The notes under the pieces are model-generated. The model was given only the letters and a program-made list of their open reading frames with translations. It searched no databases and was not told the DNA's origin. From the IMG/VR virus record IMGVR_UViG_2651869782_000025: 64,000 nt of DNA, one strand, 5' to 3'. Made by a program: the position numbers and the translations under genes. Positions 56,964 through 58,566 of the stretch are shown piece after piece (the first letter of the stretch is position 1; each line of letters begins with the position of its first letter). This DNA comes from a virus (taxonomy: Duplodnaviria > Heunggongvirae > Uroviricota > Caudoviricetes).

Positions 56964-58271
56964 ATGAGCGAATATGTTGAGTTAGCATACGCTGCCGCTA
57001 CAAGCAGGCTTTGTCTATTTACCGGGACTGGCTTTTCAAAGGCAGTCTCGAACGGTGAAGCTCCAACGTGGAAGGAACTATTAAAAAAAGTTTGCAGCAA
57101 AGTTCACAATGCCAAAAAGTTGGAAGACACGTTATTTCCTGATGATAAACCACCAGCACTGAGTCTTGAAGAAGCCGCACAAATACTATCTTTGAAGCTC
57201 AATATTGAGGGTAAGTCGATTTATGATGAAATTGTTGACATCATATCTCCAATTCAACTTGGAGAAGACATATCAAATATAAAAGACTTTTTCCAAAAAA
57301 ACTCATTCCGTGTCATTACAACAAATTATGACAAGTTGGCTGAATGCTTGGTTGGAGATGAAAGTGTACAGTCTATCACGCCCGGCCTGCCAATTCCAAA
57401 GTATCCATCCAAGGTGAAAATATATCATGTTCATGGTTCTATTGATTCGCCAAAAAATATGATTGTCACTTCAGATGATTACTTCAGATTTATAAATTCC
57501 GATACTTATTTTTCACGAAAACTTAGTACGATGCTGCATGAAAATACAGTTGCGATATTAGGGTATTCTTTAAGCGACACAAATCTTAAAGCAATTATAA
57601 ATGACTATAAAAAATTTTCGAAAAATAATGCCCTGTGCTCTAATATCTTTTTGATATCTCGCAACAAAGTAAGTCAAGACATGAAGGATTATTACTTCTA
57701 TTGCTTTGGTATAAGGGTAATTGACAATACAGAAATAGATTGTTTCTTTAGTCGATTAAGTTATAAGATGTCTCTCATTAAAGACATCATTGAAAGAGCG
57801 CGTGAAAATATCAGAAAAGTTGTTTCGGGGGCTTATACTTATAAAGATGAATATCTTGAATTAGAGGATTCATTTTATCAAATTATATCATCAATTATAT
57901 CGGAAGGTTTAGATTGGAATGATGATAAAGTCGTTTCTCTTTTCGAAAGGATAATAGAAAAAAAGCGAAAGTTAACAAGGAATGACGGAGCGTGGGAGCA
58001 ATATGAACAGTTGGCAAAATGGCTTATATATTTTGGAAGCATCATAGAGGTTAGCAATACTAAGTATGAAAAAACATATTTAGACGCAGTTGAATACTCG
58101 ATGAGTCATATGAGTAAAGAAAGGACTTGGGGAGTTTCTTGGTATGCTTACAGAGCTTGGGAAACACGATGGCCTGCAATAATTGCCTCAAATAGGTTAA
58201 TGATAAAAAACCACATTGAAACATTAGGCACCTTGAAGGACGCCAACCTTATAGTTAAGAATATAGTGTAA
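56964..58271 (+). CDS. SIR2-like (sirtuin-fold, SIR2_2/ThsA-type) protein with uncharacterised helical C-terminal domain; candidate NAD-depleting defense effector
   Basis: 435 aa. Ordered motifs LFTGTGFS (Gly-rich NAD loop), ITTNYD, YHVHGS and IVTSDDY, as in ThsA-type SIR2 domains; C-terminal about 185 aa are helical with no recognised motif; strongly AT-rich. Confidence 0.65.
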   Translation: MSEYVELAYAAATSRLCLFTGTGFSKAVSNGEAPTWKELLKKVCSKVHNAKKLEDTLFPDDKPPALSLEEAAQILSLKLNIEGKSIYDEIVDIISPIQLGEDISNIKDFFQKNSFRVITTNYDKLAECLVGDESVQSITPGLPIPKYPSKVKIYHVHGSIDSPKNMIVTSDDYFRFINSDTYFSRKLSTMLHENTVAILGYSLSDTNLKAIINDYKKFSKNNALCSNIFLISRNKVSQDMKDYYFYCFGIRVIDNTEIDCFFSRLSYKMSLIKDIIERARENIRKVVSGAYTYKDEYLELEDSFYQIISSIISEGLDWNDDKVVSLFERIIEKKRKLTRNDGAWEQYEQLAKWLIYFGSIIEVSNTKYEKTYLDAVEYSMSHMSKERTWGVSWYAYRAWETRWPAIIASNRLMIKNHIETLGTLKDANLIVKNIV

Positions 58272-58287
58272 TTGTGGTCGATAAAAA

Positions 58288-58317
58288 TTTATCGGGCAGA
58301 TAAAACTGCCCGATAAA
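58288..58317. terminator. Bidirectional hairpin terminator between convergent genes
   Basis: Perfect 12-bp stem TTTATCGGGCAG-ATAAAA-CTGCCCGATAAA; T-rich on the minus-strand side. Confidence 0.5.
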
Positions 58318-58566
58318 TTAATCAGCATTCAGGAGCAATGCGTTATCTATGATGATCTGCTCCCATTCTTCGAATGCCCGGTCACGGACGCCCTGGGGAA
58401 CGCTGTTAGTTTTGAAATCGACGACCGTACGCCATTTCCCGTCCGGACGGTACATGCGCAGAGCTTTACTTCCCCCTTCCCTGCGCACCTCAACGTTATG
58501 CTTGTCAGCAAACTCTTGTAATGCTCGTAGCGTCCCATGCTTTACTGTGTAGTATCGCTTTTTCAA
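58318..58566 (-). CDS. Small basic protein, HicA-fold-like; alternatively P1 Lxc/Bof-like by size and position
   Basis: 82 aa from a TTG start overlapping the upstream stop (TTGA); pattern VEVRREGGSKALRMYRPDGKWRTVVDF resembles HicA-type toxins but lacks the conserved His. Confidence 0.35.
   Translation of the reverse strand: MKKRYYTVKHGTLRALQEFADKHNVEVRREGGSKALRMYRPDGKWRTVVDFKTNSVPQGVRDRAFEEWEQIIIDNALLLNAD

Follow-up and report, generated by a model that had tools for sequence, protein, structure and literature searches.

The window, a 64,000-nucleotide (nt) stretch of DNA from a P1-like element (IMG/VR record IMGVR_UViG_2651869782_000025), carries between the P1 backbone genes mat and lxc one intact gene for a protein of 435 amino acids (aa), in which a SIR2 domain akin to those of defence enzymes that hydrolyse nicotinamide adenine dinucleotide (NAD+) is followed by an all-helical domain. 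The protein is proposed to be a single-protein NADase system of abortive infection (Abi), carried as exchangeable mat-lxc cargo and sensing a phage protein as DSR2 does, and we consider this proposal moderately probable. Its most likely function is that of a miniature DSR2-like build, with the C-terminal domain, a predicted alpha-solenoid, as the sensor or regulator. A sequence-only reading of the same DNA had described an AT-rich open reading frame (ORF) of 435 aa with four SIR2 motifs, a helical C-terminal domain and no visible partner at the place where P1 has res/mod, and had considered a single-gene Abi system plausible; the structural and genomic points are borne out below, and the functional suggestion finds support, with anti-phage and NADase activity as predicted properties. 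The gene and its parts are as follows.

56964-58271, plus strand: gene for the SIR2 and alpha-solenoid protein, 435 aa (ORF list, phrog_7567, homologues)
56964-57725, plus strand: predicted SIR2 (SIRim-type) NADase domain, aa 1-254 (Pfam SIR2_2, phmmer, Foldseek)
57036-57038 (S25), 57324-57326 (N121), 57330-57332 (D123) and 57432-57434 (H157), plus strand: predicted catalytic residues
57726-58268, plus strand: C-terminal all-alpha solenoid, aa 255-435, putative sensor or regulator

The ORF list of the window holds a single long ORF at this place, and the opposite strand inside it contains only short ORFs of at most 59 aa. Four SIR2 motifs follow one another between aa 18 and 173 in the order first read from the sequence, namely LFTGTGFS (aa 18-25), ITTNYD (118-123), YHVHGS (154-159) and IVTSDDY (167-173). 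Pfam SIR2_2 (PF13289) matches aa 117-252 strongly (E=1.3e-23, 84.1 bits vs a cutoff of 24.5), accompanied at E<=1 by just a sub-threshold match to BBH37. In a phmmer search against solved structures the SIR2 domain of DSR2 was the best match (E=4e-10, residues 14-282), followed by KomC and ThsA, and a Foldseek search with the full-length model placed DSR2 chains first (E=3e-12), with ThsA and KomC next. The closest solved relatives of the domain are all defence NADases. The catalytic residues of the DSR2 NAD pocket are S51, N133, D135 and H171 (PMC11850899); they align with S25, N121, D123 and H157, and in the alignment to the H171A mutant chain of DSR2 it is the alanine that faces H157. All four residues are invariant in the 35 aligned homologues. 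The domain is of the SIR2_2/SIRim type known from defence NADases, not of the classical sirtuin type, and for the clade of SIRim-type SIR2 proteins defence systems have been found to be enriched 12-fold among the neighbouring genes (preprint 10.1101/2024.09.18.613514). The full-length structure model, built on 35 homologues, has a mean predicted local distance difference test score (pLDDT) of 83.9 and a predicted template modelling score (pTM) of 0.70. Its only low-confidence stretches, residues 160-180 and 205-225 (about 57441-57503 and 57576-57638; pLDDT 52-68), come just after the catalytic His and are nearly invariant in sequence across the family; one possibility is that these are flexible loops of the active site and become ordered on activation.

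The C-terminal part, about 181 aa (255-435) where the sequence-only reading had estimated 185, is modelled as all-helical with a pLDDT of 90.6, a long linker helix (258-288) leading into about 7 further helices. From this model it is confidently taken to be a generic HEAT/ARM-like alpha-solenoid, without a Pfam family. The solenoid model rules out the SLOG, Macro, TIR, STAND, CARF and SAVED folds; a SLOG or Macro domain with a nearby partner is not what the protein has. A structure search of the domain against BFVD gave no viral fold at E<=0.001. When a profile of the domain was scored against 1.84 billion representative proteins, 96 clusters were obtained, consisting of proteins of 406-480 aa with the domain at the same position or of short fragments. 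SIR2_2 stands at the N-terminus of all nine divergent full-length matches that were checked (9/9), and the lone exception, a protein of 820 aa, proved to be a spurious glycosidase match. From this the two domains are taken to form one fixed architecture, and the solenoid is known only in fusion with this SIR2 domain. The earlier suggestion of a new sensor domain holds for its sequence and fails for its fold, which is ordinary; in concept it mirrors the HEAT-like sensor of DSR2.

DSR2 of Bacillus subtilis (among others PDB structures 8WKT, 8K98 and 8WY8) is indeed the nearest of the known systems. It is a single-gene system with an N-terminal SIR2 NADase in which the S/N/D/H residues are kept, it is the best match in both sequence and structure, and in both proteins a linker helix leads from the SIR2 domain into alpha-helical repeats, which in DSR2 sense a phage protein. 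However, DSR2 has 1005 aa compared with 435 aa here, and its MID domain (~250 aa) and HEAT-like C-terminal domain (CTD; 460 aa) lack a counterpart in the present protein, where a solenoid of 181 aa shows no sequence similarity to them. The Foldseek TM-score normalised to the query is 0.46-0.48 for full DSR2 chains and SIR2-only chains alike. The PADLOC Dsr2 model, a profile of 1222 positions, matches aa 117-238, and the NCBIfam Dsr2 equivalog NF041819 reaches 22.6 bits, far under its cutoff of 1400, over aa 117-208 only. DSR1 likewise defends as a single SIR2 protein whose C-terminal region is non-enzymatic, but it has about 1,260-1,275 aa, and its weak match is confined to the SIR2 domain, with nothing beyond aa 112-209 (NCBIfam Dsr1 equivalog NF041818, 26.2 bits vs a cutoff of 1400, aa 112-209 only).

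Other candidates were set aside on similar grounds. ThsA, the NADase effector of type I Thoeris (PDB structures 6LHX, 8BTO and 7UXT), has a related SIR2 domain (PADLOC E=2e-17; phmmer E=3e-6; Foldseek E=3e-10) and a similar size (about 476 aa), but its C-terminal SLOG domain binds glycocyclic ADP-ribose (gcADPR) and needs the adjacent TIR protein ThsB, whereas the present protein ends in a solenoid. Thoeris was rejected for the absence of a SLOG or Macro domain and of an adjacent ThsB, with TIR domains in 2 of the 139 neighbouring proteins described below. SIR2-HerA (Nezha) and PD-T7-2 were rejected as well, with no HerA in the window and weak matches to the PADLOC HerA-type SIR2 models (E=7e-7), as was Lamassu, whose LmuA model covers the SIR2 part only (aa 13-241) and whose SMC-like LmuB and LmuC do not recur nearby. 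The best PADLOC match is PDC-S25 (E=6e-27), a single-gene SIR2 defence candidate considered here together with phrog_2695; here too just aa 100-259 align, to positions 127-289 of a profile of 517 (517-528) positions, and its N-terminal extension and C-terminal ~230 aa are without counterpart, so that this core-only match is taken to mean a different family with a common SIR2 core. The lactococcal AbiH is a single small protein that acts alone as an Abi system. Its SIR2-like domain has been classed as SIRim-type (10.1101/2024.09.18.613514), but its C-terminal region is different, and it was rejected for lack of a Pfam AbiH match at E<=1. The 'Sir2 homologue' of Vassallo et al. 2022 does not serve as prior validation, being PD-T7-2, a HerA-type two-gene system. 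Altogether, the profile searches that had been suggested for this gene reach its SIR2 part only (PDC-S25, ThsA, LmuA and Dsr1/2 among the PADLOC models), and neither PADLOC v2 nor NCBIfam assigns the 435-aa protein to a catalogued system. The principle of a single-gene SIR2 protein with a helical sensor is established; the compact SIR2-solenoid family with its private C-terminal domain is uncatalogued in the PADLOC and NCBIfam libraries used and without a test in the searchable literature.

In the mechanism that we infer from these comparisons, the SIR2 domain would be an NAD+ hydrolase that is held inactive in uninfected cells, and the C-terminal solenoid, joined to it via the long linker helix, would sense infection or regulate the enzyme. 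As in DSR2, the solenoid would most likely bind a protein of the invading phage, lifting autoinhibition, and activation would probably take place within an oligomer. The resulting collapse of NAD+ would leave the infected cell no longer able to support phage growth, which is the abortive-infection outcome, and the clonal population of lysogens, hence the P1 element, would be protected.

The gene belongs to a broad and well-conserved family. A word-indexed search returned 683 homologues, of which the best 120 are nearly all 431-437 aa long and 52-62% identical over their full length; their hosts include Enterobacterales, Vibrio, Pseudoalteromonas, Halomonas, Pseudomonas, Paracidovorax, Paraburkholderia and Rhizobium. 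When each species was represented by a single genome, a further scan added Nocardioides, Desulfobacter, Treponema (33% identity) and two metagenome-assembled genomes (MAGs), one actinobacterial and one Melainabacteria-like. Most members of the family are chromosomal and found in bacteria without P1. The gene is common and already has many database entries under the name 'SIR2 family protein'; it also belongs to phrog_7567, a family of unknown function in PHROGs that matches nearly end to end (E=4.4e-245, aa 1-434 vs profile positions 1-434 of 434). On 43 contigs the identical 435-aa sequence appears, again under this name, and RefSeq labels are either 'SIR2 family protein' or 'NAD-dependent protein deacylase'. 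Among 5,426 complete Escherichia coli genomes, 690 carry mat and about 134 of these 690 also have the SIR2 cassette, almost always on plasmids of ~95-120 kb; the share is thus about 2.5% when all these genomes are counted and some 19-25% when their P1-like elements are. In PLSDB the gene is present on 61 plasmids, plasmids of Salmonella and Proteus among them.

At the mat-lxc site the gene occurs as three types of allele: that of the window, that of locus L097 (1557-2864; for example on pO26_10153_1) and that of locus L095 (3057-4361; for example in FDAARGOS_497, 434 aa). The DNA of the L097 allele is 83-87% identical to the window type, and that of the L095 allele gives a megablast match to it over the first ~140 nt only. 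The leader of 56 nt in front of the gene is the same at 56/56 positions in L097 and at 55/56 in L095, vs 59-83% identity for the coding regions. Divergence is unevenly spread along the protein: compared with the window allele, the SIR2 domain is 94.9% (L097) and 64.6% (L095) identical, the C-terminal domain 69.6% and 50.0%, and across the family mean identity to the window protein is 63% for the SIR2 domain and 45% for the C-terminal domain. Between the window and L097 alleles, synonymous divergence (dS) climbs along the gene, with values of 0.19 for codons 1-100, 1.1 for codons 101-254 and 1.6 for the C-terminal domain, a signature of a recombinant mosaic. The ratio of nonsynonymous to synonymous divergence (dN/dS) for the same pair is 0.05 in the SIR2 domain and 0.13 in the C-terminal domain; because these values are so low, the gene is taken to be under purifying selection and is no relic. 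Positive selection on the sensor, judged over the whole domain, was considered and found unsupported, recombination (dS 0.19 to 1.6) accounting for the gradient of divergence. The C-terminal half is the faster-changing, exchanged part, as expected for a specificity module. The first ~30 codons of the three alleles are 80-100% identical, while the proteins go down to 59% identity, which suggests that the leader and the 5' end may act as a recombination arm for exchanging the rest of the gene. Inactivated copies also occur: that on the plasmid of O55:H7 RM12579 (L096, 3057-4360) is annotated as frameshifted, and that on the plasmid of strain KD0845 is split by the IS5-like ISKpn26.

The place of the gene in the element was delimited by blastn against RCS47, P1, JL22 and 673R5. 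Backbone homology stops at 56903-56912 and restarts at 58315-58320, edges that coincide with the stop codons of mat (56907) and lxc (58318). The surroundings of the gene can be listed as follows, with cre (53875-54906) and ref further upstream of mat.

56908-58317, plus strand: cargo insert, 1,410 bp long, that separates mat from lxc of the P1 backbone (blastn)
56908-56963, plus strand: leader of 56 nt, with a Shine-Dalgarno-like GGAG at 56954-56957, 6 nt before the ATG
56266-56907, plus strand: mat (maturation control), directly upstream on the same strand, 94-97% identical to mat of P1 and RCS47
58318-58566, minus strand: lxc (modulator of the C1 repressor), convergent, 95-96% identical to lxc of P1
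58286-58319: perfect inverted repeat of 14 bp with a 6-nt loop, between the convergent SIR2 gene and lxc

The insert has a G+C content of 35%, with local values down to 30%, compared with 45-50% (about 47%) in the flanks. In the leader, a consensus promoter scan found no convincing sigma-70 promoter, and a weak -10-like TATAAG is visible by eye only; alignment did not find this leader in the other cargo variants of the site. The sequence-only reading had closed the gene with a perfect 12-bp hairpin terminator. The repeat is indeed perfect, but its arms (58286-58299 and 58306-58319) are 14 nt long, and it need not belong to the SIR2 gene: because it is on the minus strand that the stem leads into a T-run (TTTTAT), and because the stop codon of lxc lies partly within the right arm, the hairpin is at least as much the terminator of lxc, or a bidirectional one, as that of the SIR2 gene. 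A consensus terminator scan called it on neither strand. The L097 allele has a related hairpin next to lxc, and the L095 allele and each other cargo have a different one. A scan with Rfam in and near the cassette gave one chance-level match only and no known RNA element.

Comparison of the mat-lxc interval across P1-like elements, which had been suggested at the outset, shows a variable cargo site bounded by the stop codons of mat and lxc, with defence genes in other elements.

RCS47 (L093), slot at 3468-3506: empty, 39 bp
P1: EcoPI res/mod and IS5
JL22 (L094), slot at 3510-4460: one gene for 316 aa with a weak PDC-S34 match
vB_EcoM-673R5 (L092), 4700-5799: CapRel-like PDC-S33 gene, broken into ORFs of 182 and 180 aa whose combined matches span a single profile of 349 positions
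Escherichia albertii plasmid (L098), 3056-3454: gene of unknown function for 132 aa

The EcoPI res/mod genes of P1 and the CapRel-like PDC-S33 gene of 673R5 have the insertion point in common with the SIR2 gene, and presumably also the protection of lysogens from other phages, but they are unrelated in protein and mechanism (DNA restriction and tRNA pyrophosphorylation). As far as the accessible text and supplement of a DefenseFinder-based survey of 846 P1-like contigs go, the defences found there are type III restriction-modification (R-M), dGTPase, PrrC and CapRel, and SIR2 or Dsr is mentioned in neither.

No partner gene could be attached to the family. The window holds no TIR, HerA, pAgo, SLOG or STAND partner, and none recurs at homologous loci. 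When 1,714 ORFs (>=60 aa, <=4 kb away) from 54 full-length loci, each of a different species, were clustered, none of the resulting families extended beyond 3 loci, and batch domain scans of the 139 nearest neighbours from 52 loci revealed nothing recurrent beyond a generic ResIII helicase domain (5/139), with TIR and SMC_N at 2 each. The neighbours are scattered among type I R-M, TIR, Mrr, NERD, AbiEii-like AAA_21, PDC-S66, mad3, integrases, resolvases and transposases, and the flanks at the Halomonas, Pseudoalteromonas, Paraburkholderia and E. coli prophage loci are dissimilar to each other and to mat and lxc. The gene mat itself was rejected as a partner, since P1 relatives carry it whatever their cargo and it is unlike the upstream neighbours of chromosomal homologues. 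Such surroundings are those of a gene that travels by itself as cargo of defence islands and mobile elements. Two of the chromosomal loci may be described further. An E. coli paralogue of 436 aa, 59% identical and present on 42 contigs (L002-L005, 6001-7311), directly follows the integrase at one end of a prophage, with narP and the ccm operon as its neighbours; one strain has a gene for an AIDA-type autotransporter in between. In Halomonas daqingensis (L006, 1100-11667) the homologue stands within a same-strand run of defence-like genes, comprising two HNH proteins, DUF4145, an HSDR_N-like protein, several unknowns and a DUF87/HerA-like ATPase. This run resembles a defence island, possibly with uncharacterised members, and its DUF87/HerA-like gene, 2.6 kb downstream of the SIR2 homologue, belongs to this one locus and is not recurrent.

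Several points weigh against an Abi system of the DSR2 kind. The sensor is a quarter the size of the ~700-aa MID and CTD of DSR2, and, being so much smaller, it does not allow the tail-tube-clamping mechanism to be transferred directly. The solenoid also contains a cluster of aromatic and polar residues (Trp, Tyr, Gln, Asn, Arg) that is invariant across bacterial classes, and this cluster could bind an unchanging ligand or contact the SIR2 domain instead of offering a surface for variable phage proteins. Positive selection over the C-terminal domain as a whole was not found (dN/dS 0.13, not >1). The control of the gene raises another concern: in P1, mat is governed by a C1 operator and a late promoter, and the SIR2 gene follows directly behind mat. 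Expression in the lysogen, which defence requires, is in question because there is no evident promoter and the gene is positioned in linkage with mat. Furthermore, megablast and tblastn found no homologue among the 50,697 phage genomes on deposit, which include about a dozen P1-like phages of independent origin. This could be a hint that carriers are less often obtained as virions, although so few independent P1-like records are not statistically compelling. Lastly, searches of the literature on P1 hotspots, P1-like phage-plasmid defence, single-gene SIR2 proteins and PDC-S25 found no experiment on this SIR2-solenoid family.

Three other explanations were weighed. In the first, the protein would be a SIR2 NADase effector that answers a small molecule, the aromatic pocket of the solenoid binding a nucleotide-derived messenger or a metabolite changed by infection. 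The signal would come from the phage or from a gene located elsewhere, and a logic like that of Thoeris or Kongming would operate in trans. That the SIR2 domain is also near ThsA and KomC, both of which are ligand-activated, speaks for such an effector, as do the many invariant Trp, Tyr, Gln, Asn and Arg residues of the C-terminal domain, more typical of a fixed ligand or interface. We nevertheless regard it as unlikely: a conserved signal maker (TIR, cyclase or KomA/B-like) was found nowhere in the 54 loci, TIR being limited to 2/139 neighbours, the domain is modelled as a solenoid and not as one of the SLOG, Macro, CARF or SAVED ligand-sensor folds, and the gene moves alone among very different genomes.

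Alternatively, the gene might have no anti-phage role and serve the phage-plasmid, for instance as a toxin that stabilises it or excludes competitors. It might also encode a deacylase or ADP-ribosyltransferase that modifies host proteins in the lysogen or in the lytic cycle, or an enzyme of counter-defence. Its position invites this idea, as it is co-oriented with mat and directly after it, with no terminator or clear promoter between, so that expression with a C1-controlled late gene is possible; moreover, the adjoining lxc-ulx-darB block is regulatory and anti-restriction in nature, not defensive. The RefSeq name 'NAD-dependent protein deacylase' would agree with a modifying enzyme, but it is an automatic family label, and the domain is of the predicted defence-NADase type already described and not a classical sirtuin. 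The other occupants of the mat-lxc slot are defence genes, and the family is mostly found on chromosomes without P1, amid genes of defence and mobile elements. A service to the phage-plasmid is for these reasons considered improbable.

The data fit least well with an orphaned effector of a multi-gene system (Lamassu LmuA-SIR2, SIR2-HerA, ThsA or short-pAgo SIR2), left inactive or partly functional when its partner was lost on capture by P1, which we hold to be very improbable: the PADLOC LmuA model of near-equal length (433) does match aa 13-241 (E=4.5e-16), ThsA models reach E=2e-17 and the Halomonas locus has its DUF87/HerA-like gene 2.6 kb downstream, but the model matches end where the SIR2 domain ends, neighbours of the SMC/LmuB, HerA, TIR or pAgo kind recur in none of the 54 loci, and conservation over the full length (52-62%) in Gamma-, Beta- and Alphaproteobacteria and beyond, under purifying selection, is unexpected for a stranded fragment.

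If the single-protein, DSR2-like defence system is accepted, it can be extended. On a tentative view, conceivable though short of probable, the gene would be the founding example of a widespread, uncatalogued 'mini-DSR' family, its solenoid would recognise a phage component other than the DSR2 trigger, and P1-like elements would swap alleles, the sensor half especially, across the leader and 5' end to retune resistance. Were this so, an immune gene assigned to no system by the PADLOC and NCBIfam libraries used would be present in about a fifth of E. coli P1-like elements. As an active defence, the protein would be among the smallest self-contained SIR2 sensor-effectors and a tractable model for the gating of an NADase by a short helical repeat; it would also be an unlisted system for the catalogues, and the defence counts of clinically relevant P1-like phage-plasmids would be underestimated. 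Three alleles with one leader at one site are a natural experiment on the exchange of immune specificities by mobile elements. If the protein is inactive or has another function, a SIR2_2 domain in a hotspot would be insufficient for calling a defence gene.

The remainder of the window differs from P1 in further respects. The Ulx-like anti-restriction gene ulx (58563-59017, minus strand), which adjoins lxc, is a pseudogene: an 11-nt deletion near its 5' end has removed the start and shifted the frame, and residues 13-146 are 98% identical to intact Ulx. Homology to P1, RCS47, JL22 and the closest SIR2-bearing plasmid ends at 59017, and in the rest of the window (59018-64000) a chaperone-usher fimbrial operon replaces darB, with a 308-aa ORF (59364-60290), a gene of the DsbA family (60702-61343) and then FedE-like, chaperone and PefC/AfrB usher genes. 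The same arrangement is common to E. albertii P1-like plasmids of ~96-100 kb, at 89-92% identity. Because the fimbrial operon stands in the place of darB, the element has exchanged part of an anti-restriction module for an adhesin operon. The element is without the type III system of P1 yet has R-M of its own, a complete type I system on the minus strand (38812-44815) composed of hsdR (38812-41928), hsdS (42051-43256) and hsdM (43253-44815), all with very strong PADLOC matches.

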